A model generated the notes under the pieces. That model did no database searches and was not told the origin of the DNA. It saw only the letters and a list, made by a program, of their open reading frames with translations. The position numbers and the translations under genes are program-made. A stretch of DNA of 60,303 bases from an uncultured Bacteroidales bacterium (GTDB lineage Bacteria > Bacteroidota > Bacteroidia > Bacteroidales > P3), in the NCBI GenBank assembly GCA_947303735.1, contig CAMYZD010000001.1, positions 1 through 60,303 of the forward strand, read 5' to 3'. This document shows positions 7,988 to 56,582 of the stretch, in pieces; the stretch's first letter is position 1; each line of letters begins with the position of its first letter.

Positions 7988-9556
7988 ATGAAAAAGAAAA
8001 CAATATTGATGGCTGTTATGGCTTTAGCCACAGCATCCTTTATAGGCTGTAAGCCTGACGAAGAGACACCCCAATTGCCGGAAGAGTTGGCCGAAGAGAC
8101 TTATGCGGGAGGTCGACTTGGCACTACATTCAACCAGTCGGCATCGGCATTTGAAGACCCTACGCCGGCAGTTGAGCAGGCTGGCATGGTGAATGCCTTC
8201 AAATATGGTGAGTTCTTCTTTGAACATACTGTCACACAAAACAACCCACCTTTCAATGGGTTGGGTCCTCTCTATGTGCGTTCGTCATGTGAAGCCTGTC
8301 ATCCAGGGTATGGACATGGACGTCGCATGGAACGCTATCGCGCCGACGACTGGGCTAACGGCTACCTGCTGGTAGTGTACAACAAAACTACCGATGCCTA
8401 TGAGACCTCGGTGGCGGGCATGCCACAGACCAAGGCCGTAGCCCCCTTCAAGCCTTCGATTGACGAGGAGAAAATTAATATCAACTGGCTCAGCTATACC
8501 GACGAATGGGGCAACCGCTTCCCCGACGGCGAGACCTACAACCTCATCTATCCCGAGGTGACAATACCCGAGGATGCTTTCTATGCCCCCCTCTCGGTGC
8601 CATATAGCCAGCTGGCTTTCCGCTTGGAGAGCACCATCGGCATTTATGGAACAGGACTGCTGGACGCCATTCCCGACGACTCGCTCAAAGCGCAGTATCA
8701 GAAAGAATATGATGCAGGTGCCGACCTCAATCCCGCTATTTGGGCTGGGCACGATTGGGCATCGCTCTATGGCAATACCAACCACCCCAAACGTTTCACC
8801 TATGCTCTCAGCCGTGGGCCTCTGCAGGATGCTGCCGGAGCCAATGCCATTTGGAACATCACTAACGTGAACCGTAGCGACCGTAGAAGCCATTACCTGA
8901 GTCTGAACAAGAGTATCTATGCCACTACGGCATCGGAAGACCCAGAGGTGCAGGCTCAATTCTACCACTATTTCCCACAATGGAACAAGTCGGGCGACCC
9001 CCGCACAGATATTTATAACTATCTGATGTGTGATACGCTGCCAATAGAGATGAGCGATCAGGACTATGTCAACTTCATGGTGTGGCACCGCGGACTGGCA
9101 GTACCAGCAGCTCGAAACTTGAGTGACACTACAGTGCAACGCGGGCGCAAGCTGTTTCGCGACATGGGATGCGCCACCTGTCATCGTCCCAGTTGGACCA
9201 CGGGCCCGGACAACTACAGCGACCCCAACGGATTTTTTGCAGATGGGGATTCCCGTCTGCCCCGTTACCCGTATCAGAAGATATGGCCCTATACCGACAT
9301 GGTGCAGCATCGGCTGCACATGGTCAACGACATCCGCACCGGCTGGTGCCGTACCACACCGCTGTGGGGTAGAGGTTTGTCGCCCATCTGTAGCGGCCAT
9401 AGCGACCGTCTGCACGACTGTCGTGCCCGTAACGTGGTGGAGGCTATCATGTGGCACGGATGCCCCAATAGTGATGCCCGTTGGACAGTGGAAAAATTCC
9501 GCAAGCTGTCAAAGAGCGACCGCGACGCAGTGGTCAAGTTTATTAATGCTATTTAA
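7988..9556 (+). CDS. Di-haem cytochrome c peroxidase-like protein (DUF1111-type), lipoprotein
   Basis: 522 aa with the lipobox SFIGC. Carries two CXXCH haem-binding motifs (SSCEACHPG and MGCATCHRP). It sits beside an imelysin gene, as in known imelysin/DUF1111 loci. Confidence 0.8.
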   Translation: MKKKTILMAVMALATASFIGCKPDEETPQLPEELAEETYAGGRLGTTFNQSASAFEDPTPAVEQAGMVNAFKYGEFFFEHTVTQNNPPFNGLGPLYVRSSCEACHPGYGHGRRMERYRADDWANGYLLVVYNKTTDAYETSVAGMPQTKAVAPFKPSIDEEKININWLSYTDEWGNRFPDGETYNLIYPEVTIPEDAFYAPLSVPYSQLAFRLESTIGIYGTGLLDAIPDDSLKAQYQKEYDAGADLNPAIWAGHDWASLYGNTNHPKRFTYALSRGPLQDAAGANAIWNITNVNRSDRRSHYLSLNKSIYATTASEDPEVQAQFYHYFPQWNKSGDPRTDIYNYLMCDTLPIEMSDQDYVNFMVWHRGLAVPAARNLSDTTVQRGRKLFRDMGCATCHRPSWTTGPDNYSDPNGFFADGDSRLPRYPYQKIWPYTDMVQHRLHMVNDIRTGWCRTTPLWGRGLSPICSGHSDRLHDCRARNVVEAIMWHGCPNSDARWTVEKFRKLSKSDRDAVVKFINAI

Positions 9557-9600
9557 CTAGTTGTACTAGTAGCACTAGTATTACTAGCCATACTAGAGAT
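9556..9600. repeat. Tandem 9-bp array, 5 units of ACTAGTNNN
   Basis: actagttgt actagtagc actagtatt actagccat actagagat. The array begins on the last base of the TAA stop (9554-9556) and ends within the ATG of the next gene (9599-9601). Confidence 0.95.
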
Positions 9601-14974: not shown

Positions 14975-15048
14975 TCGGGGCGAAAAGACTCGAACTTTCG
15001 ACCCCTTGCACCCCATGCAAGTGCGCTAGCCAACTGCGCCACGCCCCG
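14975..15048 (-). tRNA. tRNA-Pro (anticodon GGG)
   Basis: Hand-folded cloverleaf. Acceptor CGGGGCG/CGCCCCG, D arm GCGC-AGTTGGCTA-GCGC, anticodon arm CTTGC-ATGGGGT-GCAAG (anticodon GGG at 34-36), T arm GAAAG-TTCGAGT-CTTTT, discriminator A. CCA is not encoded. Confidence 0.9.
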
Positions 15049-23662: not shown

Positions 23663-24433
23663 TTATTTCTTGTTTGTTATTTTCATTGTTAAGTATTGTT
23701 CGGCTGCAGCCAGGTCTTCGGGGGTGTCGATACCCATGTTGCTTGTCGGTGTCTCACTCACCCGTATGCTGTAGCCATTCTCCAACCAGCGCAGCTGCTC
23801 TAGGCTTTCGCTTTTCTCAAGAGGCGAAGGTGAAAGGCTTACCACCTTCTTCAGCACGGTAGTTCTGAAGGCATATATGCCCACATGCTTATAGTAGTCC
23901 TGCTGTTGGAGCCATTTCTCTTGATCAACTCCTCTGAGGTAGGGTATTGGTTGACGGCTAAAGTAGAGGGCATTCCCCTTGTGGTCGCACACCACCTTCA
24001 CGTTGTTGGGAGAGAAAAGCTCTGCCTCTGAGCGTATGGCTGTCTTAAGGGTGGCAATCTGGGTGTCGTCGTGCTCGAAGCACTTGATTAGACTCTTCAA
24101 CTGTTCTTGTTGCACAAAAGGCTCATCGCCTTGGACATTGATAACCACGTCAAACTGTTTGCCTTCCGCCTCCAATGCCTCCAACACTTCTCCACATCGG
24201 TCAGTGCCGCTACGATGGGTGCTACGGGTCATCATCACGTTGCCTCCCAATGTCTTCACGGCCTCTGCAATGCGGCTGTCGTCGGTTGCCACCACAGCCT
24301 CATCCAGCAAGGGTAAGGCTGTCACGCTATCCCACACCCAGGCTATCATTGGCTTACCCCCCAGCTGTGCCAGAGGTTTGCCCGGGAAGCGGGTCGAAGC
24401 ATATCGTGCAGGTATGATGGCAAGTGTTCTCAT
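23663..24433 (-). CDS. kdsB: 3-deoxy-manno-octulosonate cytidylyltransferase
   Basis: Has IIPARYASTRFPGKPL at the N-terminus and NVQGDEP. Confidence 0.92.
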   Translation of the reverse strand: MRTLAIIPARYASTRFPGKPLAQLGGKPMIAWVWDSVTALPLLDEAVVATDDSRIAEAVKTLGGNVMMTRSTHRSGTDRCGEVLEALEAEGKQFDVVINVQGDEPFVQQEQLKSLIKCFEHDDTQIATLKTAIRSEAELFSPNNVKVVCDHKGNALYFSRQPIPYLRGVDQEKWLQQQDYYKHVGIYAFRTTVLKKVVSLSPSPLEKSESLEQLRWLENGYSIRVSETPTSNMGIDTPEDLAAAEQYLTMKITNKK

Positions 24434-25056
24434 TAGGCTTCGGTAAACAGTGAATTTATGTCGGCATCTATCATATTGTACACCGCCCCGAGGTCTTCCT
24501 CATGGGTGACAAAGTTCAGTTTGTTGAGGTCTACTACAATGATTTTCCCCTTGTTGTAGTTCTCTACCCAGTCTTCATAGCGCTTGTTCAGTCCCGTGAG
24601 GTAGTCCAGCCGTATGCTGTTCTCATATTCTCTGCCGCGCGACTGTATGTTGCGAATCAGGGTCGGCACGTCAGCTCTCAGGTAGATGAGCAGGTCGGGT
24701 GGCTGCAGGAATGACGACACCAGCTCAAAGGTGTGCTGGTAGTTGTCGAAATCGCGGGTGTTCATGAGTCCCATCGCATGCAGGTTGGGTGTGAATATAT
24801 AGGCATCTTCATAAAGGGTACGGTCCTGAATGATGTTTTCACTCTCCTTTTGGGCTTCTAGCAATTGGCGGGTGCGGGTGTGGAGATAGTATATCTGGAT
24901 GTTGAACGACCACCGGCGCATATCCTCATAGAAACTGTTGATATAAGGATTCGTCTCTGTCGACTCGTATATGGGTCTGTACCCATAGTGCCGAGCCAAC
25001 ATTTTGGTCAATGTGGTCTTACCCGAACCAATATTCCCTGCAATAGCGATGTGCAT
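24433..25056 (-). CDS. Deoxynucleoside kinase family protein
   Basis: 207 aa with the P-loop IAGNIGSGKTTL and a dNK-type ERS/DR region. Confidence 0.88.
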   Translation of the reverse strand: MHIAIAGNIGSGKTTLTKMLARHYGYRPIYESTETNPYINSFYEDMRRWSFNIQIYYLHTRTRQLLEAQKESENIIQDRTLYEDAYIFTPNLHAMGLMNTRDFDNYQHTFELVSSFLQPPDLLIYLRADVPTLIRNIQSRGREYENSIRLDYLTGLNKRYEDWVENYNKGKIIVVDLNKLNFVTHEEDLGAVYNMIDADINSLFTEA

Positions 25057-25145: not shown

Positions 25146-25171
25146 ATGAAATTGAAAATCGAAAATAGAAA
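25146..25171. repeat. Degenerate heptad array (TTGAAAA family, about 4 units)
   Basis: atgaaa ttgaaaa tcgaaaa tagaaa. It is followed by the perfect 10-bp palindrome attgcgcaat (25174-25183). Confidence 0.6.
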
Positions 25172-40340: not shown

Positions 40341-42398
40341 ATGAAAAAAATTGCCATAATTGTTTGTTTTATAGGACTGGTTGTGATGGATGGGAGTGTA
40401 GAAGCCCAGGGGCTGTTTGGCGGCAGGAAGCGCAATAAGGCACGCATCGAGCGTGCGGCCAAGAAAAAAACGGGAACACTGCCCATAATGGTGAAGGGTG
40501 AAAAGTTTGAGATGGTGTTGGTGCGAGGCGGCTCGTATATGATGGGGTGTGACCCCGAGTTTTGGGGCACTTCGGTAAGCCCATATTCAAATAGATTCTT
40601 TTATGGCGTAAACAAGGGTACTTCGGTGCTGGACAGCAAGGAGAGGGGCAAGAACGACGAGGTGCCCCGTCACGGCGTGTCCGTGGGCAGTTTCTATATG
40701 GGGCGCTACGAGGTGACGCAGGCGTTGTGGAAGGCTGTGATGGGCTACAACCCGTCGAACTTTGTGGGCGACGAGCTGCCTGTGGAGCAGGTGAGTTTCG
40801 ATGAGGTGCAGACCTTTATCACGCGGCTGCGGGAGTTGACGGGGCTGCCTTTCCGTCTGCCTACGGAGGCGGAGTGGGAGTATGCTGCCCGAGGGGGTGC
40901 GGAGGCGAAGAGCACAACGTATGCAGGGTCGAACGAGTTGATGCATGTGTCGTGGACACAGCTTAATAGCGGCGATTCTACCCACATAGTGGGAGGATTG
41001 GTGCCCAACGAGTTGGGATTGTATGATATGACGGGCAATGTGTGGGAGTGGTGCAGCGACTGGTATGCCGACGACACTTACGCATGGGATGTGGCATCGC
41101 ACTATGACGTTCCCGCCAGAGTGAAAAGCCGACAGGATTTATATCAGTATTGGGTGGATATAGGCGAGGAGCGTAATATCTTGGAGAGCATCGACGAAAC
41201 CGTCTCGCCCAAGGGACCCACCAGCGGGACGACAAAGGTGGGCCGAGGAGGCTCGTGGGCTGATGTGAAGGAGGATGTGAGGGTGTCGTATCGCAACTTT
41301 TGGCAGCCTAATATGCGGTTGAGTGTGTTGGGATTTAGGCTGGCGTTGTCGGCCGACAGTGTGCCTGCGTCGGGGTGGATGCCTAACCAGTATGTGTTGG
41401 ATTCGTTGGTGGGAGGGAAGGCATACTCGTCGATGACATCGGAGGGTGTCGCACGGCAGGCCAATGGTGTGTTGGAGGGGGCGTTCAGCGTGTCGCCTAC
41501 ACGGCAGGTGCGTTTCTCGAAGGGCAACCTGCAGTACAATGCGGTGGCAGACCAGTGGCGTTTTGCCGAAAGGCAGTACGACATTATCGGATTGGACAAT
41601 GTGGAATACGGTAAGCATTATGCGGGGTGGATTGACTTGTTTTCCTTTGGCACGAGTGGCTATCACAATAAGTCGCCCTACTATTATTCGGCTCAAAATG
41701 CCAGCTATGGCAATGGCAACCGCAATATCGACAGGACGAGCTATGATTGGGGCGTTTACAACGCTATCAGCAATGGCGGCAACCGTGTGGGGCAGTGGAG
41801 GACGCTGTCGGTGAACGAGTGGGCGTATATGTTGATGCGTCGGCCTAATGCGGAGAAGCTGATGTCGCCCGCCTCTATAAACGGCCACCAAGGAATGCTG
41901 CTGCTGCCCGACGACTGGCTTGAAACGGGAGGCGACACACTGCGTGAAGGGGTGGTGTATCTGTTCAGTACAAAGCAGTGGGGTGTGATGGAACGTGCAG
42001 GGGCGGTGTTTTTGCCGTGTGCGGGGTATGCTAAGATGATGTGCTACTATTATGCTGTGCCATTGCCTGGGCAGGTGGAGACGTTGATACCCATGTTCAA
42101 CACTGGGCTAGGACATAGTCTGGGTAGGCTTGCGTCTGCCAGCATGATGCCGGAAGAGGCAGAGCAGGCCGAAGGGGGAGGACTCATGAATGACACCCAG
42201 GCAAGGTGGGAGGCGTTGAAAAACTACCGTCCGCCGGTGGAGAGTGATGAGGGTTTAGGGTATTATTGGACAACTATCCATTACAACGAGGAGACGGCAC
42301 TGGGCTATTGTTTCACTTCGGAAAAGCGGGGCTATATCATACCTTTAGAGCGGCTGACGCGTATGTCGGTGCGCCTGGTGCAGGACGTGGGGAATTGA
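40341..42398 (+). CDS. Secreted FGE/SUMF1-domain protein with a lectin-like C-terminal half, paralog B
   Basis: 685 aa and collinear with paralog A. The two share the identical block GLVPNELGLYDMTGNVWEWCSDWY and also RLPTEAEWEYAARGG, GRGGSW, GFRLALS, GYYWTTIHY and SVRLVQDV. Confidence 0.8.
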   Translation: MKKIAIIVCFIGLVVMDGSVEAQGLFGGRKRNKARIERAAKKKTGTLPIMVKGEKFEMVLVRGGSYMMGCDPEFWGTSVSPYSNRFFYGVNKGTSVLDSKERGKNDEVPRHGVSVGSFYMGRYEVTQALWKAVMGYNPSNFVGDELPVEQVSFDEVQTFITRLRELTGLPFRLPTEAEWEYAARGGAEAKSTTYAGSNELMHVSWTQLNSGDSTHIVGGLVPNELGLYDMTGNVWEWCSDWYADDTYAWDVASHYDVPARVKSRQDLYQYWVDIGEERNILESIDETVSPKGPTSGTTKVGRGGSWADVKEDVRVSYRNFWQPNMRLSVLGFRLALSADSVPASGWMPNQYVLDSLVGGKAYSSMTSEGVARQANGVLEGAFSVSPTRQVRFSKGNLQYNAVADQWRFAERQYDIIGLDNVEYGKHYAGWIDLFSFGTSGYHNKSPYYYSAQNASYGNGNRNIDRTSYDWGVYNAISNGGNRVGQWRTLSVNEWAYMLMRRPNAEKLMSPASINGHQGMLLLPDDWLETGGDTLREGVVYLFSTKQWGVMERAGAVFLPCAGYAKMMCYYYAVPLPGQVETLIPMFNTGLGHSLGRLASASMMPEEAEQAEGGGLMNDTQARWEALKNYRPPVESDEGLGYYWTTIHYNEETALGYCFTSEKRGYIIPLERLTRMSVRLVQDVGN

Positions 42399-42422
42399 AA
42401 AGTGAAAATTGAAAATTGAAAA
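42395..42422 (+). repeat. Heptad array, 4 units (ttgaaaa gtgaaaa ttgaaaa ttgaaaa)
   Basis: Exact 7-bp phasing. The first unit contains the TGA stop (42396-42398) of the FGE paralog B gene. Confidence 0.95.
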
Positions 42423-42435
42423 ATGGCTGGCGCGG

Positions 42436-42498
42436 TCATTTGTCATTTGTCAATTCACTATTCACTATTCACTAATCACGATTCACATTTCACTTTTT
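42436..42498 (-). repeat. Heptad array, 9 units (plus strand: tcatttg tcatttg tcaattc actattc actattc actaatc acgattc acatttc acttttt)
   Basis: Exact 7-bp phasing. Read on the minus strand the units are GTGAAWW/TTGACAA-like, so this array is in inverted orientation relative to 42395-42422. Confidence 0.9.
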
Positions 42499-42502
42499 TT
42501 CG

Positions 42503-42510
42503 TATATTTG
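42503..42510 (+). promoter_or_regulatory. Candidate -7 box (TATATTTG) for the GH3 gene
   Basis: 26 nt upstream of the ATG at 42536. Confidence 0.45.
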
Positions 42511-42535
42511 CATTTTGTAAACTAAGTGGCAGATT

Positions 42536-44656
42536 ATGAAGAAAGGTTTGATTATTATCGTATTGGCTGTTTTGCTGGGTGGGGTTACTCCCGTATTGGG
42601 ACAGGATTTCCCCTTTCAAGATACGCGCTTGTCGGTTGCCGAGAGGGTGGAAGACTTGCTGTCGCGGCTGACGTTGGACGAGAAGTTGTCGCTGATGCAA
42701 CACCGCAATCCAGCCATCCCTTCGCTGGGGTTGCCCGCCTACAGTTGGTGGAACGAGGCCCTGCACGGCGTGGGGCGCAACGGACTGGCCACGGTGTGGC
42801 CGATGCCCATCGCGCTGGCAGCTACGTTCGACGACTGGATGGTGCGGCAGGTGTTTGCCGACGTGACATTCGAGGCGCGGTGGAAGTATCTGGAAGCGGC
42901 ACACGACACTGCTTCGACTATGGCAAAAGAACCTACCGACTATACGGGACTTACCTTTTTTACGCCCAATATCAATATCTTCCGTGACCCTCGCTGGGGG
43001 CGCGGCATGGAGACTTACGGTGAGGATCCCTTTCTGACGGCACGCATGGGCTTGGCGTGTGTGAATGGCCTGCAACATAACTACGACTTTTCGTTGACGG
43101 GAAAGGTGGATATGGAGCATTTGACGGCGGCAGCATGCCTGAAGCATTTGGCAGTGCACAGCGGCCCCGAGGGGGTGAGACACGAGTTTGACTCACGGGT
43201 GAGTCCGCGCGACCTGTGGACTACCTATCTCCCTGCTTTTGAATATATCATCAAGAATAGCGACGTGCAGCAGGTGATGTGCGGCTACAACCGGTTGAAC
43301 GGTGAGCCATGCTGTACCAATAAAGAGTTGCTGGTCGACATATTGCGCAACAAGTGGCATTACGACGGCTTGTTGGTGACAGACTGCTGGGCGCTGAACG
43401 ATTGTTGGGAGCGCGACACCGTTATTCCCCGCCACAAGACCCATGCCTCGGCAGCCCTCACGGCAGGCGACGCCTTCGGCAGCGAGGTGGACTTGGAGTG
43501 TGGCAGCGGGTTGGCGGCACTAAAGACGGCGGTAGACTCAGGCTATGTGCGAGAGGAGGTGATAAACCAGCATGTCCGCCGCATACTGAGCACTAGGTTG
43601 CGGGTGATGGAATTGAGTCCCACGGGTGATATTGTCCCAAGTGGTATCGACCCAATGTATGTTGCATCGCAGAGCTTGGTGCTACTAAAGAACGAGAATC
43701 ATTTGTTGCCCCTTCAGCAGGGGACGACCAAGATATATTTGGCAGGACCCAATGCCGAGGATACCTTGATGCCGCTGGGTAACTATAATGGCACTCCGGC
43801 CCATACGGTGAGCCTCCGTGAAGGATTGGGCGAGCTTTTTCAGTTGGTCGACAATCCGAAACAGGCCGACGTGATAGTGTATGCTGGAGGATTGAACCCT
43901 CAGTTGGAAGGGGAGGAGTTGCCTGTGGATATGCCAGGTTTCTACAAAGGCGACCGCACCCGAATAGAGTTGCCTAACGACCAGCAGAAGGAGATACGAC
44001 GTTTGCGGCGGAAACATAAACCTATGGTGCTGCTTCTGTGTAGTGGTAGCGCGGTGGCTTTGGACAAACATGCGCTGCGGTGCGACGCCATCATGGAGTG
44101 CTGGTATGGAGGCGAGGCGATGGGTATGGCCGTGGCCGCCTCTTTGGCTGGCTATTATGATAATTTCGGACGCCTGCCCGTCACATTCTATAAAAGTACT
44201 CAGCAACTACCGTCCTTCGACAGTTACGACATGCAAGGACGCACCTACCGCTATATGACCCAGGCACCGCTGTATTCTTTTGGCTACGGATTGGATTATG
44301 CTTCCTATAGGATAGGAAAGGTGCAGTATGAGGGTGGCAAGGTGTGTGGCGAGGTGAAAATGGTGGAGTCGCCCCGTGTGAAACCTCACGGGTCGAGTCA
44401 TACGGTGGTGGAGGTCTATCTTCGGGGAGCAGAGGGTAGCGGCGAACCTCTCAAGCAGCTGGTCGGTTTCCAGAAGGTGGCTGTCGGAGAGAATGGCACT
44501 CAGCAGTTTGAGATAGCTATCGATCCCTATTGGCTGCGGATGTTCGATGAGGAAACACAAGAGATTGTTCCGATACCTGCAGGCAGCGAGATTACGCTGC
44601 TGGTAGGGTTCAGCAGCGCGGACAAAGACTTGGTTGAATTAAAAATTAAATTATAA
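42536..44656 (+). CDS. Glycoside hydrolase family 3 (beta-glucosidase/beta-xylosidase-like)
   Basis: 706 aa with a signal peptide. Has GH3 N-terminal-domain motifs (NIFRDPRWGRGMETYGEDP, KHLAVHSGPE, VTDCWAL) and the C-terminal sandwich/Fn3-like region. Confidence 0.9.
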   Translation: MKKGLIIIVLAVLLGGVTPVLGQDFPFQDTRLSVAERVEDLLSRLTLDEKLSLMQHRNPAIPSLGLPAYSWWNEALHGVGRNGLATVWPMPIALAATFDDWMVRQVFADVTFEARWKYLEAAHDTASTMAKEPTDYTGLTFFTPNINIFRDPRWGRGMETYGEDPFLTARMGLACVNGLQHNYDFSLTGKVDMEHLTAAACLKHLAVHSGPEGVRHEFDSRVSPRDLWTTYLPAFEYIIKNSDVQQVMCGYNRLNGEPCCTNKELLVDILRNKWHYDGLLVTDCWALNDCWERDTVIPRHKTHASAALTAGDAFGSEVDLECGSGLAALKTAVDSGYVREEVINQHVRRILSTRLRVMELSPTGDIVPSGIDPMYVASQSLVLLKNENHLLPLQQGTTKIYLAGPNAEDTLMPLGNYNGTPAHTVSLREGLGELFQLVDNPKQADVIVYAGGLNPQLEGEELPVDMPGFYKGDRTRIELPNDQQKEIRRLRRKHKPMVLLLCSGSAVALDKHALRCDAIMECWYGGEAMGMAVAASLAGYYDNFGRLPVTFYKSTQQLPSFDSYDMQGRTYRYMTQAPLYSFGYGLDYASYRIGKVQYEGGKVCGEVKMVESPRVKPHGSSHTVVEVYLRGAEGSGEPLKQLVGFQKVAVGENGTQQFEIAIDPYWLRMFDEETQEIVPIPAGSEITLLVGFSSADKDLVELKIKL

Positions 44657-44692
44657 ACTAGTCGGACTAGTCCGACCAGTCCGACTAGTCTG
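44657..44692. repeat. Tandem 9-bp array, 4 units (actagtcgg actagtccg accagtccg actagtctg)
   Basis: It starts on the base after the TAA stop (44654-44656). It contains the perfect 16-bp palindrome gtcggactagtccgac (44661-44676) and is followed by A7. Confidence 0.95.
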
Positions 44693-44710
44693 ACAAAAAA
44701 ACAACACAAC

Positions 44711-45436: not shown

Positions 45437-46638
45437 GGAAAAGACTAGTATTTCTAGTACTGCTAGTATCACTAGTTAGACTAGAAGCTCAAGAGGGCTT
45501 TCATTTCGGGTTCCACGGCTTTGTCAACCCCCACTACTATGCCGACAGCCGCAGTGTTGTGGGCGGGCGCGAGGATATGATGCTGTTCTACCCCAAACCC
45601 ATCGTGCGTGATGCTCAAGGCAACGATATCAACGACGGTTGGCAGGCCAATATGCTTGCCATCACCGCAAGGCTGAATGTGAAAATCACGGGTCCTGAGA
45701 TGTTGGGTGCAAAGACCTCTGCCTTTGTGGAAGGCGACTTCACGGGAGCAACTAACGCCACTATTGACAATCTGCGCCTGCGTCATGCCTACTTCACCCT
45801 CGACTGGGGGCGACACAAACTGCTTGCCGGACAATATTGGTATGCCATGGTCACACACGAGATTATGCCCATGACCAACCCTCTGAACATGGGTGCACCT
45901 TTTCATTGCTATGCGCGGCAACCGCAAGTGCGGTACACCTACAGTCTTGATGGACTGGAGGCGGTGGCTGTGGCACAGTGGCAGTTGGACAATATGAGTC
46001 AGGGACTGCTGAACGGGGTGCCTACCTCTTCTACGCTGTTTGCAAGACATAGCATATTGCCCGAGCTGAATGCCCAGCTGCGTTACCGCACGTCGAGATT
46101 GTTTATCGGGGCCGCTGCCAACCTCAAGAGCATACAGCCTATGGTGAACACTGCTGGTATGGCATCATCCCAGCAACTGCACCGTTCGTTGAGCTACTCC
46201 ATCTTCGGCAGCTACCGCTTCGAAGAAGGCTTTACCGTCAAGGTGCAAACTCTCCTCAACAACAGCCTCTATGAGGGATGTTCGCTGGGCGGTTATCTGA
46301 TGTACCAAAGTGTGGGAGGCAACCTTGTGGACTTCCGCGACTGGCACTTCAACACCGTGTGGCTCGACATCGAGCGCAACCATGGACACTGGCGGCCCGG
46401 TCTCTTCATGGGCTATGCCCAGCATATGGATGAGGGTCCTGTGCCAGCCATCTATGGTCCTGTCACCGTCTTTGGTCGCGGCTACGACCTTGATTATCTC
46501 TGGCGCATACAACCTCGCCTCACCTACACTACCCAGAAAGGTCTCTCCTTCGTGGGCGAAGCCGAATACACCTACGCTGGCTACGACGAGCCGGTGGGCA
46601 ACCTGCGTCTTTCATTAAGTGCCGTATATGCGTTCTAA
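45433..46638 (+). CDS. Putative outer-membrane beta-barrel / porin-like protein
   Basis: 401 aa with a signal peptide. Shows beta-strand patterning and a C-terminal aromatic residue (LSLSAVYAF). Confidence 0.65.
   Translation: MRKRLVFLVLLVSLVRLEAQEGFHFGFHGFVNPHYYADSRSVVGGREDMMLFYPKPIVRDAQGNDINDGWQANMLAITARLNVKITGPEMLGAKTSAFVEGDFTGATNATIDNLRLRHAYFTLDWGRHKLLAGQYWYAMVTHEIMPMTNPLNMGAPFHCYARQPQVRYTYSLDGLEAVAVAQWQLDNMSQGLLNGVPTSSTLFARHSILPELNAQLRYRTSRLFIGAAANLKSIQPMVNTAGMASSQQLHRSLSYSIFGSYRFEEGFTVKVQTLLNNSLYEGCSLGGYLMYQSVGGNLVDFRDWHFNTVWLDIERNHGHWRPGLFMGYAQHMDEGPVPAIYGPVTVFGRGYDLDYLWRIQPRLTYTTQKGLSFVGEAEYTYAGYDEPVGNLRLSLSAVYAF
45444..45488. repeat. Tandem 9-bp array, 5 units (actagtatt tctagtact gctagtatc actagttag actagaagc) inside the signal-peptide codons
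   Basis: Exact 9-bp phasing. In frame it reads CTA-GTN-NNN, giving LVF LVL LVS LVR LE. Confidence 0.95.
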
Positions 46639-49563: not shown

Positions 49564-49642
49564 GTTAAATTTGTATTTTTTATGTGGTTATTATTGCTTG
49601 TCTGTCTGATAAAAATACTTAAAATGCATCCTCAATAGAAGG

Positions 49643-49657
49643 GTGGCCGAAGGCCAC
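49643..49657 (-). terminator. Small GC-rich hairpin downstream of sdaA
   Basis: gtggcc-gaa-ggccac. No clear T-run follows on the minus strand. Confidence 0.3.
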
Positions 49658-49664
49658 GAATGTA

Positions 49665-49699
49665 TCAATTCTCAATTTTCAATTTTCAATTCTCAATTC
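49665..49699 (-). repeat. Heptad array, 5 units (minus strand: gaattga gaattga aaattga aaattga gaattga; TTGARAA family)
   Basis: Exact 7-bp phasing. It begins 3 nt after the TAA stop of sdaA (49703-49705). Confidence 0.95.
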
Positions 49700-49702
49700 C
49701 CT

Positions 49703-50893
49703 TTACTCTTCCACTGCCAGACCGCCCATCGAAGTCTCTTTGTAGAGGCTGGGCAGGTCGTGTCCAGTGCGTTTCATTGTGCGCACCACCTTGTCGAAAC
49801 TGATGATGTGCTTGCCATCGCTCATCATGGCGTAGATGTTGATATCCAAGGCTCGCAAGGCTGCCATGGCGTTGCGCTCGATGCAGGGTATCTGTACCAG
49901 TCCGCACATGGGGTCGCACGTCAGGCCTAGGTTGTGTTCCATGGCCATCTCGGCGGCATACTCTATCTGCTGTGGGCTTCCGCCAAACAGTTGGTTGGCC
50001 GCCACTGCTGCCATCACGCAGGCACTTCCCACCTCACCTTGGCAGCCCACTTCGGCGCCCGATATAGAGGCGTTGTGCTTGATGACGTTGGCAAACAGTC
50101 CTGCTGTTGCCATGGCGCGTAGTATCTCCTTGTCCGAAAACTCATGAGCCTTTTTCAAGTGGTATAGAACAGCCGGTAACACGCCTGAAGCTCCGCAGGT
50201 GGGTGCGGTCACTATTTGACCTCCCGCCGCGTTGCGTTCCGATGTGGCAAGTGCATAGGCAATCACCAGCGCACGGCTCTGTAGCGAGGGTTTGTAGCTC
50301 GAGGCACGTACATAATACTGCCGAGCCTTGCTCCGTAGATGCAGTCCGCCAGGGATTACCCCTTCTTCCCGAAGACCTTCGGCAACAGTACTTTGCATCA
50401 CTTCCCACATCTCCTGCAGGTATTCCCAGATGTCTGCCTCTTCGCACTGCTGGACATACTCCCAGTAGGTCATGCCTTCGCGTTCGATGAAAGGCAGTAT
50501 CTCTGTCAGGGTCTGCATGTCGTACACCTGTCGCGATTCCTCCTTCATGCTCTCGTTTGCCAGCGCGCCACCGCCTACGCTGTAGATGGTCCAGTCGGAC
50601 GTGGTGACGCCTTTGTCGTCCAAGGATTCAAAATACATGCCGTTGGTGTGGAAAGGTTTCACGATATCGGGACGCCACACAATTTCCACTGGGATGGGGT
50701 AAGCCCCGTCGGCTATTGCCTTGTCGGTGCCGTGCCCTTTGCCAGTGGAGGCAAGGCTGCCATAAAGTGTTACGCGGAGGCTTTTCGCCTCGGGATGTGA
50801 TTGGCGGAACAGTTGAGCAGCACGATGAGGAGCCATCGTATGGCTGCTAGAGGGACCGACTCCCCTACGGTATATTTTCTTGATAGATTCCAC
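49703..50893 (-). CDS. sdaA: L-serine ammonia-lyase (Fe-S dependent, single-chain)
   Basis: Has GVGPSSSHTMAP near the N-terminus and the alpha-domain motif GAEVGCQGEVGSAC. I prefer the GTG start at 50893 because a -7 box overlaps the ORF-track TTG start at 50929. Confidence 0.88.
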   Translation of the reverse strand: MESIKKIYRRGVGPSSSHTMAPHRAAQLFRQSHPEAKSLRVTLYGSLASTGKGHGTDKAIADGAYPIPVEIVWRPDIVKPFHTNGMYFESLDDKGVTTSDWTIYSVGGGALANESMKEESRQVYDMQTLTEILPFIEREGMTYWEYVQQCEEADIWEYLQEMWEVMQSTVAEGLREEGVIPGGLHLRSKARQYYVRASSYKPSLQSRALVIAYALATSERNAAGGQIVTAPTCGASGVLPAVLYHLKKAHEFSDKEILRAMATAGLFANVIKHNASISGAEVGCQGEVGSACVMAAVAANQLFGGSPQQIEYAAEMAMEHNLGLTCDPMCGLVQIPCIERNAMAALRALDINIYAMMSDGKHIISFDKVVRTMKRTGHDLPSLYKETSMGGLAVEE

Positions 50894-50926
50894 TTGATGG
50901 TATTCAGTATAAGAAATTACAAATTG

Positions 50927-50934
50927 CAAAAGTA
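50927..50934 (-). promoter_or_regulatory. Candidate -7 box (TACTTTTG) for sdaA
   Basis: Plus-strand caaaagta, 34 nt upstream of the GTG at 50893. Confidence 0.4.
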
Positions 50935-54860: not shown

Positions 54861-56582
54861 CTATAGTCTTGGTATGGCATCGAGGAGGCGTTGGGTGTAG
54901 GGGTGCTGAGGATGGGCGAAGAGTTTGTCGGCTGGGCCTTGCTCCACAATACGTCCCTTTTCCATGACTAGGATACGGTCGGAGAGGAATTTGACCACAG
55001 ATAGGTCGTGAGTGATAAAAAGGTAGGTGTAGCCGTGTTTCTCTTTGAGTTCGTTGAGAAGGTTAAGCACTTGGGCCTGCACGGATACATCTAGTGCTGA
55101 AACGCTTTCGTCGCAGATGATTAATTCGGGCTGTAGGATGAGGGCTCGGGCGATGCAGACGCGCTGGCGTTGCCCGCCGCTGAATTCGTGGGGATAGCGG
55201 TCATACCAGTCAGGTTCGAGCCCTACCTGCTGCATGAGGGAGAGGACTTTCTCTTTGATAGAAGGTCTAGAGATACTAGTTTTACTAGTATTGCTAGTCT
55301 GTCTAGCAATACTAGTGTTGTGGACTATTAGGGGCTCTGCTATGGCTTCGCCTATGGTGATGCGTGGGTTAAGGGAGGAATAGGGGTCTTGGAAGATAAT
55401 CTGCATCTTGCGACGGAGGGCCTTTGTCTCGGACGAGGAGAGGTGGTCGAGGCTTTTGCCGTCGTATTCAATACTGCCAGAACTTCGCTCTATCAGTTGC
55501 AAGATGGCACGCCCGAGGGTACTTTTGCCGCAACCGCTTTCGCCAACAAGACCCACGGTCTCTCCACGGTAGATGTCGAATGAGAGTCCGTCAACGGCTT
55601 TTAGTTCTTTTGTTACTTTGCCAAAGAGGGTGGTTTCGAGGGGGTAGGTGACTTCGAGGTTGCGGACGCGAAGTAGGGGAGACTTTCTGTTTAATTGAGA
55701 ATTGGGAGTTGAGAATTGAGAATTATTGGAGGTTTCAGCCATATCTTTACTACTCCATTCTCCTTTCTCGTTTTCAAGAAAGTCCTTGACGGTCAGTAGG
55801 CGGTGGGGGCGGCTGTCCAACGGTGGGCGGCAAGCAAGGAGACCTTTGGTATAAGGATGTCGAGGGTGGTGAAGCACCTGTTGTGCTTCGCCCTGCTCCA
55901 CTATTTCACCATGATACATCACGGCTACCTCGTCGGCAATTTGGGCAATCACTCCGAGATCGTGGGTGATGAAGATAATGCCCATGTGATATTTCTTTTG
56001 CAGGGAGCGCAGAAGGTCGAGAATGGTTTTCTGCACAGTGACGTCGAGGGCGGTGGTGGGCTCGTCGGCGATGAGAAGGTCGGGGTGGCATATCAGCGCC
56101 ATGGCTATCATAACACGCTGCTTCTGTCCGCCACTGATTTCGTGGGGATAGCTGCGGTAAATCTTCTCGGGACGGGGAAGCATGACTTCTTCAAAGAGTT
56201 GTATGGTGCGCTGCCGGGCTTCCTGTCGCGACACCTTCTCGTGGGCCAGAAGCATCTCTTCCACCTGTTTGCCACACCGCTGTACGGGGTTGAGGCTGGT
56301 CATGGGCTCTTGGAAAATCATGGATACGCGTCCGTGAAGGTCGGTCCATGAGCCGGTGGCCTGTGCCGTTCGGGGCAACAGACCCATGAGGGCTAGAACT
56401 GAAACCGATTTGCCGCTACCCGACTCACCTACGATGCCCAAGGTGGTGCCTCTACGCACGTTGAATGAGATGCCTTTGACGACTTCGTGATAAGTTCCTT
56501 CATGCGTAAAACCGATGTGCAAATCTGTTACTTTTAATACTGTTTGATCCATGAAATCCAAGATTTTTTTACTAAAACGCAT
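54861..56582 (-). CDS. ABC transporter ATP-binding protein with duplicated ATPase domains (Dpp/Opp/YejF-like)
   Basis: 573 aa. Has two Walker A motifs (GESGSGKS, GESGCGKS), two signatures (ISGGQKQR, FSGGQRQR) and HPYT-type oligo_HPY tails. No permease or binding-protein gene is adjacent. Confidence 0.9.
   Translation of the reverse strand: MRFSKKILDFMDQTVLKVTDLHIGFTHEGTYHEVVKGISFNVRRGTTLGIVGESGSGKSVSVLALMGLLPRTAQATGSWTDLHGRVSMIFQEPMTSLNPVQRCGKQVEEMLLAHEKVSRQEARQRTIQLFEEVMLPRPEKIYRSYPHEISGGQKQRVMIAMALICHPDLLIADEPTTALDVTVQKTILDLLRSLQKKYHMGIIFITHDLGVIAQIADEVAVMYHGEIVEQGEAQQVLHHPRHPYTKGLLACRPPLDSRPHRLLTVKDFLENEKGEWSSKDMAETSNNSQFSTPNSQLNRKSPLLRVRNLEVTYPLETTLFGKVTKELKAVDGLSFDIYRGETVGLVGESGCGKSTLGRAILQLIERSSGSIEYDGKSLDHLSSSETKALRRKMQIIFQDPYSSLNPRITIGEAIAEPLIVHNTSIARQTSNTSKTSISRPSIKEKVLSLMQQVGLEPDWYDRYPHEFSGGQRQRVCIARALILQPELIICDESVSALDVSVQAQVLNLLNELKEKHGYTYLFITHDLSVVKFLSDRILVMEKGRIVEQGPADKLFAHPQHPYTQRLLDAIPRL
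55266..55319. repeat. Tandem 9-bp array, 6 units (tctagagat actagtttt actagtatt gctagtctg tctagcaat actagtgtt) inside the ABC ATPase gene
   Basis: Exact 9-bp phasing. On the coding (minus) strand it reads ACT-AGT-NNN and encodes NTSIARQTSNTSKTSISRP. Confidence 0.95.
55695..55729 (+). repeat. Heptad array, about 5 units (ttgagaa ttgggag ttgagaa ttgagaa ttattgg) inside the ABC ATPase gene
   Basis: 7-bp phasing, antisense to the coding strand. It encodes the inter-domain linker segment NNSQFSTPNSQLN. Confidence 0.9.

Follow-up and report, generated by a model that had tools for sequence, protein, structure and literature searches.

Inverted heptanucleotide arrays around a conserved linker in an uncultured Bacteroidales bacterium: a putative decayed copy of a dispersed mosaic palindromic element

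The DNA under study is a stretch of 60,303 nucleotides of an uncultured Bacteroidales bacterium (GCA_947303735.1, contig CAMYZD010000001.1), referred to at its full length as the window, in which the spacer between a gene with an FGE-sulfatase domain and a GH3 gene carries two inverted arrays of 7-nt units around a short GC-rich sequence. With a probability of slightly over one half (about 0.55), this FGE-GH3 locus represents a copy, decayed and without its core, of a small palindromic mosaic element with a dispersed occurrence in Bacteroidales of rumen and gut. This element is most likely comparable to repetitive extragenic palindromic (REP) sequences and miniature inverted-repeat transposable elements, or MITEs, with slippage-prone arms and a putative mobility and function, and the element family that is flanked by the window arrays appears undescribed. 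Its full architecture consists of an (AATTGAR)n arm, a linker GGCTGSCGC in either orientation, a two-hairpin core of about 45 nt, and a T-rich inverted arm. The FGE-GH3 spacer of the window keeps the arms and the linker without the core, whereas the orthologous spacer of the related contig L001 keeps the core. By this comparison of sequences, the locus between FGE and GH3 would be a core-less derivative, and a second one, downstream of sdaA, a decaying half-element (Table 1).

The linker provides a first line of evidence. The GC-rich sequence of the window (GGCTGGCGCGG) is the conserved linker of the dispersed element; a preliminary description of this DNA missed both this and the lack of a structured core in the present copy. 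Indeed, a metagenome scan for TTGARAATTGGCTGSCGC returned at least 59 instances of two or more heptads running into the motif (on 56 contigs, with 49 distinct sequences), and TTGGCTGSCGC also follows heptads at non-orthologous sites in L075 and L092. The linker is followed either by ACCCGGATAA and an inverted TTYTCAA arm (short form), or by TCATTTGTC and an arm of the TAATCAC/TATTCAC type (window-type form, found also in L128, L001, L160, L185, L168, and L075), or by a core of about 45 nt, composed of cgTCCCCTCTTKAGAGGGGT, a variable GC stem with a GAAG or TAAG loop, and GGGGTATGT, and then a T-rich arm (long form). The canonical short-form linker and the long core are both absent from the window, which holds only two decayed element copies in its 60 kb; on Bacteroidales contigs, linker and core are dispersed, with several copies per contig. 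Among viral contigs the core was found on a single one, which amounts to essentially no phage carriage.

A second line of evidence is the structure of the core. An alignment of 15 distinct long-core copies shows no change in hairpin 1, and in hairpin 2 each of the three modelled pairs has undergone double compensatory changes and none has been broken (pair types GC7/CG6/UA2, CG10/UA3/GC2, and CG8/GC3/AU2/UA2). A covariance model built from the long core (R1) matches the orthologous FGE-GH3 spacer of L001 with 71 bits, on the strand opposite to the FGE gene. Its best match in the window is the FGE-GH3 spacer too, although only the flanks are aligned and 39 core positions are missing. The degenerate core next to the sdaA arm of the window falls below the detection limit of this model; its orthologue in L128 still fits (L128:15107-15170, 26.5 bits, E=3e-4). 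Rfam contains no family for the window locus or the long core, both yielding only sub-threshold miRNA-hairpin look-alikes. The only Rfam match of the window at the gathering threshold is a single tRNA gene (14975-15048, minus strand).

Furthermore, the core occurs in frame within genes. In related contigs it was found in genes for NrdD, a GT4 glycosyltransferase, a Wzx-like flippase, a sulfatase, and an alpha-2-macroglobulin (sites L213:2481-2551, L240:1347-1417, L157:1527-1597, L204:1630-1700, and L135:10595-10665), and it thereby qualifies there as an intragenic palindromic element akin to the Rickettsia palindromic elements (RPEs). These copies lie between or outside the Pfam domains of long open reading frames (ORFs), and in four of the five cases it is the antisense strand of the core that is read. 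In NrdD, it corresponds to a 15-residue insert (TYPAADAAPLSRGEC) that is missing from NrdD of T. maritima (PDB 4coi). That the core is tolerated in ORFs argues against a strong terminator. Within the window, genes contain only repeat arrays and no core: heptads overwrite the inter-domain linker of the double ABC ATPase, and ACTAGT 9-mers (55265-55316) add about 12 residues (ARQTSNTSKTSI) to its second ABC domain compared with the L130 orthologue.

The arms of the element are the arrays that first drew attention to this locus. All heptad arrays listed in the preliminary description were recovered at their positions by Tandem Repeats Finder (TRF), and they form a non-random family, as had been proposed, rather than occurring at chance frequency. 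Indeed, three consecutive KTGARAA units (at most three mismatches) match ten times in the window versus 0.07 expected, and the window contains five period-7 and four period-9 arrays of at least three copies, versus 0.04 and 0.02, respectively, in 50 dinucleotide shuffles. Head-to-tail 7-nt units longer than expected by chance are what defines long heptanucleotide simple sequence repeats (SSRs). The first array of the spacer opens in the last codons of the FGE gene (AAT TGA), overlapping its TGA stop, and this A-rich arm places TGA in all three frames. The second array had been described as nine inverted units of the same KTGARAA heptad. An array is indeed present, 58 nt in length, but its units are GTCATTT (= AAATGAC) and ATTCACT (= AGTGAAT), and pattern search found no minus-strand KTGARAA match in 42436-42498.

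Table 1. Positions of the arrays, element parts, and genes considered in the window
Feature	Position	Strand	Remarks
A-rich sense heptad arm, AATTGAA-type (TTGAAAA GTGAAAA TTGAAAA TTGAAAA)	42393..42422	+	TRF (4.3 copies), pattern search
Linker, 'GC-rich core' ATGGCTGGCGCGG	42423..42435	+	hairpin apex; copy of TTGGCTGSCGC junction motif
T-rich inverted arm: GTCATTT x2, GTCAATT, then (C/T)ACTATT / CACTAAT / CACGATT / CACATTT	42436..42493	+	TRF arrays 42435-42452 (2.6 copies) and 42453-42494 (6.0 copies)
T7 run (42494-42500), CG, TATATTTG (42503-42510)	42494..42510	+	block kept in all relatives
Sense heptad arm, GAATTGA x5	49665..49699	minus	3 nt past sdaA stop, in the sense of the gene; TRF 5.0 copies
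Degenerate two-hairpin core catcctcaatagaagggtggccgaaggccacgaatgt	49627..49663	+	adjoins sdaA arm; orthologous alignment with L128
Heptad array in double ABC ATPase ORF	55693..55724	+ (antisense to ORF, stop-free)	encodes inter-domain linker residues SNNSQFSTPNSQLN; TRF 4.6 copies
Degenerate heptad array	25149..25171	+ (minus-strand reading)	T-rich heptads, T8, and CGTATCTTTGC; directly upstream of dNK gene; TRF 3.3 copies
Self-complementary ACTAGTCSG 9-mer array, associated but distinct	44657..44694	+	begins right after GH3 stop
ACTAGTNNN 9-mer arrays	9556-9587, 44657-44694, 45444-45476, 55265-55316		four arrays reported by TRF
FGE-sulfatase-domain gene	40341-42398	+	
GH3 gene	42536-44656	+	
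sdaA gene	49703-50929	minus	
Double ABC ATPase ORF	54861-56582	minus	
dNK gene	24433-25056	minus	

A third line of evidence comes from related genomes. Five syntenic contigs, with flanking genes of about 80-95% nucleotide identity and with sample labels that suggest an origin from ruminant-gut metagenomes, have an FGE-GH3 spacer built to a common plan: sense heptads from the stop codon onwards, a GGYTGSCGC motif, T-rich heptads, T6-7, and the promoter. Their arrays comprise about 3 to 6.6 copies of varying units (AATTGAA, TTCTTAT, AAACTAA), with A-rich arms of 3-6.6 units in L002, L003, and L128. Similarly, the spacer downstream of GH3 bears an array in every FGE-linked relative, with a period of 7 or 9 and unrelated units; it matches that of the window only in L002, with another unit or period in L001, L003, and L128, and it is absent from the more distant L129 and L130. 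Downstream of sdaA, the arm counts five copies in the window, about six in L128, and 12 in L002; it is missing in L001, L003, and L125, and wherever it is missing the neighbouring hairpin is missing too. L124, a same-species Logan contig (98.5% nucleotide identity over a 2,172-bp match spanning GH3), has TTTTCAA x3 upstream of GH3 in place of the GTCATTT/ATTCACT arm and AATTAAA-type heptads downstream of it, the assembly breaking inside arrays on both sides. Hence, the arrays are hypervariable at the strain level. Copy number and sequence thus vary between close relatives at fixed positions, both in the five orthologous spacers and in L124, and the variation in unit number for which the preliminary description had advised a search extends even to the sequence of the unit. 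A metagenome scan for the 3' end of the FGE gene, meant to gather further strain alleles, gave no match.

The GH3 gene of the window is itself a divergent allele, with 66-86% nucleotide identity to its relatives (compared with L002, L128, L001, and L124). The GH3 genes of the relatives are mostly 90-98% alike, with 69-84% in a few segments, and identity in the flanking genes amounts to 88-97%. The array-bearing spacers lie close to where the divergent block ends, which suggests allele replacement by recombination nearby. At the protein level, the nearest named relatives of GH3 are entries labelled 'MAG: Bacteroidales bacterium' (77-80% identity), and exact-protein look-ups with the GH3 and FGE proteins of the window gave no match. 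Proteins encoded in the window carry sorting domains of the type IX secretion system.

Beyond this lineage, a scan for (TTGARAA)x4 in one genome per species gave at least 120 loci, and the rules that follow are drawn from the matches listed. These belong mostly to Bacteroidales (Prevotella, Tidjanibacter, Parabacteroides, and many metagenome-assembled genomes, MAGs) and further to Thermoanaerobaculia, Blastocatellia, filamentous cyanobacteria, Chloroflexi, Planctomycetes, the candidate phyla radiation, and Desulfonema. Cultured carriers of TTGARAA arrays include Parabacteroides goldsteinii DSM 19448 (L027) and Proteiniphilum acetatigenes DSM 18083 (L035), and L092, L059, and L172 are examples from array-rich Bacteroidales MAGs. 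All arrays are intergenic save 23 in ORFs, and these 23 are without exception antisense, the stop-free orientation. Sense arrays start at most 10 nt from an upstream stop codon in 39 of 72 cases, versus none of the 54 antisense arrays, and in 14 of those 39 the stop codon is the array's own TGA; the tie to stop codons suspected earlier is thereby borne out, in the window as well as in these matches. The arrays are framed by AATT, and period 7 dominates (in the 120 loci scanned, it accounts for 283 of 425 tandem arrays, and in the loci of the window lineage for 19 of about 54). Inverted pairs display the polarity (TTGARAA)n-core-(TTYTCAA)n in 52 cases versus one (42 distinct pairs). They lie in co-directional spacers in 22 cases, in convergent ones in six, and in divergent ones in two, versus about seven expected from spacer length. 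An array of TTGAAAA units is also carried by L011, a contig of Candidatus Absconditabacterales. This lineage is generally held to read TGA as glycine, so that stops in all three frames would not apply there.

Three rival explanations have each some support and rank below the decayed-element reading. According to the one that survives best, which is nevertheless unlikely, the arrays are pure SSRs generated in situ, by local polymerase slippage in AT-rich 3' spacers, essentially neutral and without any element or mobility, the inverted layout and the GC-rich core being incidental leftovers of an original spacer or terminator. This agrees with the fast turnover of unit and copy number and with the literature, in which, according to the passage of PMC4679880 that cites Mrazek 2007, heptamers are the most abundant class of long SSRs in many bacteria and polymerase slippage is their published explanation (see also PMC4692102). 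It also agrees with the behaviour of the unit. In viral contigs, (TTGARAA)x4 occurs in 68 stretches versus 42, 59, and 34 for three control heptads, namely two scrambled ones (TGTARAA, TAGTRAA) and one G-to-C variant (TTCARAA), and the TTGARAA unit itself is not special. Slippage alone, however, does not predict the 52:1 polarity of the inverted pairs, nor an identical linker or core at non-orthologous loci of different genomes, nor a covarying two-hairpin core that is also found in frame within genes. The horizontal spread of one special heptad, another explanation considered, is weakened by the control heptads being about as frequent in viral contigs.

Several observations weigh against the decayed-element reading. 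The window copy is without a structured core, its best match to the core model (E=2.7) being not significant. The linker motif is not enriched in the 60-kb window (10 occurrences versus 8.7 expected), which is also in keeping with pure SSRs. TTGARAA arrays of the same polarity stand around unrelated cores in other phyla, so that arrays need not have this element. The predicted hairpin of the spacer, treated below, loses its significance in L003 (z = -1.0) and L001 (z = -0.3). The genes in the scanned loci (120 plus 120) were called crudely, as longest ORFs. No transposase came to light either, no search aimed at one having been made. Lastly, no target-site duplication was established from the filled (window, L002, L128) and empty (L001, L003) sdaA sites. 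These differ at an ambiguous TTAA/AATT junction, which could reflect either a duplication of 2 bp or a deletion by microhomology.

As to the RNA that the FGE-GH3 spacer would yield, the preliminary description had counted 16 pairs among the 19 positions of 42407-42425 and 42437-42455, which is exact, and the long imperfect hairpin that it foresaw is predicted at 42395-42498 with a minimum free energy of -29 kcal/mol (z = -3.5), the orthologous hairpin of L002 reaching z = -4.6. The longest inverted repeat at this locus measures 34 nt with 71% complementarity. The T7 run is likewise present at the end of the second array, with about 22 nt between it and the predicted 3' end of the long hairpin. 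It is followed by TATATTTG, which fits TAnnTTTG, the Bacteroidetes -7 promoter consensus, and is the predicted -7 box of GH3, with the GH3 start 25 nt downstream. The same succession of T-rich heptads, T7 or T8, and CGTAT(A/C)TTTGC precedes both GH3 (42494-42512) and dNK (25146-25120, minus strand), and the heptads before these two genes may supply -33-like TTTC motifs.

A selected, roughly bidirectional terminator or insulator, in which the arms would be the expanded A- and U-tract flanks of a GC hairpin that halts the transcription of FGE just ahead of the promoter of GH3, its strength being tunable in 7-nt steps, is more doubtful than pure SSRs. As in bidirectional intrinsic terminators, a GC-containing hairpin stands on both strands between a preceding A-rich and a following T-rich tract after a stop codon, the arrays stand between the stop codon and the next promoter, and the T-run is conserved. 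The cores of Thermoanaerobaculia (L036, L074) resemble terminators composed of an A-run, a GC stem, and a T-run, inverted pairs are scarce in divergent spacers, and a small inner hairpin (42421-42441) is listed by a terminator scan. Unlike such terminators, the window stem is long, AU-rich, and imperfect, its U-run is not adjacent to it, and the spacer lacks the GC-rich stem, short loop, and immediate U-tract of an intrinsic terminator; the inner hairpin itself contains only three GC pairs and a weak tail. In addition, the scan listed nine sites in the window versus 9.2 in shuffles, hence no excess, and among 22 inverted pairs in co-directional spacers the sense strand was the more stable one in nine cases and the antisense strand in 13. 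This lack of a folding bias does not support a strand-specific RNA structure. The cores between the arms of the inverted pairs, taken alone, are not significantly structured (z of about 0), and arms plus core are tolerated in ORFs. A role in the GH3 promoter accounts for the T-run just as well, and T7 speaks but weakly for termination.

The weakest rival, a recognition array, holds that phased TTGARAA units bind a DNA- or RNA-binding factor or act as an unstructured A/U-rich ribosome-related spacer, whose stops in all frames reset translation from one gene to its neighbour in Shine-Dalgarno-poor lineages; it is improbable, since the unit is not conserved at orthologous positions (TTCTTAT, AAACTAA, AATTAAA, or 9-mers), control heptads are about as common, and the window arrays do not lie in the GH3 leader because GH3 has its own promoter after them, even though arrays often fill the whole gap from a stop to the next ATG (...TTGAGAAttATG), some lie 0-10 nt from downstream starts, TGA occurs in all three frames, and binding of S1, Csp, or CsrA has been proposed for TAACTGA repeats upstream of start codons (MacGregor, PMC4679880). 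A phase-variation switch was rejected, since the promoters and 5' coding regions of the flanking genes are free of the arrays, which stand after stop codons or in frame-tolerant linkers.

If the FGE-GH3 locus is a decayed element, its core would be, or would have been, an insertional (selfish) sequence, and its arms would be ordinary heptanucleotide SSRs whose length and unit change through slipped-strand mispairing, a process that the neighbouring hairpin probably seeds or stimulates. The TGA-bearing A-rich arms would survive mainly where they abut the 3' ends of genes, because all three reading frames are closed there, and the T-rich complement would be tolerated upstream of promoters or in ORFs because it is stop-free. 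In transcripts, the arms might pair into a long AU-rich stem, which would serve at most as a weak 3'-end hairpin, terminator, or insulator separating the FGE gene from the promoter of GH3. The window copy probably has little functional or regulatory weight. About as doubtful as the terminator is the reading of the arm-linker-core-arm modules as a class of miniature insertional element that is active and undescribed and in whose mechanism the heptads, instead of arising passively by slippage, take part, either as iterated binding or cleavage sites or as sequence synthesised during insertion; this would explain the polarity, the AATT framing across several phyla, and in-frame insertions such as that in nrdD.

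Other modules of related make-up were encountered. A second conserved core of about 40 nt (TTGGCCATCCGGTGCGT..ACGCAGGT..GCGTATTAA) is flanked by inverted heptad arms, and the otherwise unrelated contigs L056, L067, L101, and L102 have only a module of about 90 bp, composed of these arms and this core, in common. In L092 (4640-4999, minus strand), a 115-bp unit is duplicated in tandem; it combines a TTGAAAR arm and GGCTGGCGCGGTCA with a CAATCAA-type array, and its linker is identical to that of the window. The 9-mer arrays of the window are self-complementary, 44657-44689 pairing with itself at 94%. Those at 9556 and 44657 begin right at a stop codon, and ACTAGT has TAG in one frame on either strand.

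The value of these findings lies in the element family to which the FGE-GH3 locus points, not in the locus itself. If the decayed-element reading is true, many AT-rich arrays beside the stop codons of Bacteroidales MAGs are what remains of a single family of mosaic elements. This family would fragment short-read assemblies, as with the contig ends of L124 inside arrays on both sides of GH3, and would mark spacers whose turnover greatly exceeds that of the genes beside them. Its core could add peptide segments to NrdD and glycosyltransferases and to ABC ATPase linkers, and the family would provide a tractable case for the interplay of hairpin elements and heptanucleotide slippage.

Heptanucleotide tandem repeats were reportedly described in cyanobacteria by Mazel in 1990, as short tandemly repeated repetitive (STRR) sequences. 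TAACTGA direct repeats occur in Beggiatoaceae, Cyanobacteria, and some Bacteroidetes, where they are intergenic, lie beside start or stop codons, are mixed with other heptamers, and change in length in 7-nt steps between strains (MacGregor, PMC4679880). Similarly, the GGGAATC repeats of Xanthomonas and Nostoc are intergenic for 89-93%, with few between divergent genes, and keep their position while varying widely in length and sequence (Rehm et al., PMC4692102). The preliminary description knew of no described element with the organisation of the window arrays, but these published intergenic heptanucleotide repeats have its properties. Indeed, the window arrays possess every defining feature of this known class: they share with it the period of 7, the placement close to stop codons in the sense of the gene, the stop-free orientation of in-ORF copies, the mixing of different heptads in one spacer, and conserved positions with a length and sequence that vary between relatives. 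A literature search with the unit sequence itself (TTGAGAA and similar) gave only irrelevant papers, and AATTGAR/AGTGAAT units and uncultured rumen and gut Bacteroidales hosts are unreported for the class. In addition, the published repeats are almost only direct (169 direct sets versus one indirect set in BOGUAY), whereas here a conserved linker or core stands between arrays that are paired in inverted orientation with a fixed polarity.

Small dispersed repeats embedded in tandem heptameric repeats, SDR5 and SDR6, were reportedly found in Nostoc punctiforme by Elhai et al. in 2008. They resemble the present element in having an apparently mobile core of tens of nucleotides within heptamer arrays; phylum and sequence differ, and the likeness serves as a lead only. 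MITEs, of which the Correia elements of Neisseria are an example, share with it a size of about 100-140 bp, inverted ends, non-orthologous dispersed copies, an intergenic location near gene ends, and a possible effect on transcripts. The fixed-polarity inverted arms can stand for their terminal inverted repeats, although these ends are tandem repeats of variable length instead of fixed ones.

Finally, REP sequences with their bacterial interspersed mosaic elements (BIMEs) and REPINs, CGTC-tagged REPs, and RPEs are likewise short dispersed hairpin repeats in extragenic DNA downstream of genes, mostly between co-directional or convergent ones (PMC3733652, PMC3116915). Among them too are inverted dimers able to form larger hairpins, as well as mosaics whose motifs alternate in orientation, and some copies of RPEs and of intragenic REPs are in frame within genes (PMC3733652). 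As in the CGTC-tagged REPs, most of the 15 aligned copies carry CGTC ahead of hairpin 1. The REP tags (GTAG or CGTC), however, are unpaired, and the CGTC families have a stem of 8-9 bp beginning with AT, a loop of 4-5 nt, and a CCA tail (PMC3733652), whereas hairpin 1 has a 6-bp stem (CCCCTC), pairs the last C of CGTC, and has no CCA tail, which places it outside these families. Unlike in REPs, the arms are tandem heptads and there is no second REP copy. If the decayed-element reading is true, the family described here would be a Bacteroidales counterpart of the REP/BIME sequences and of the Rickettsia RPEs.

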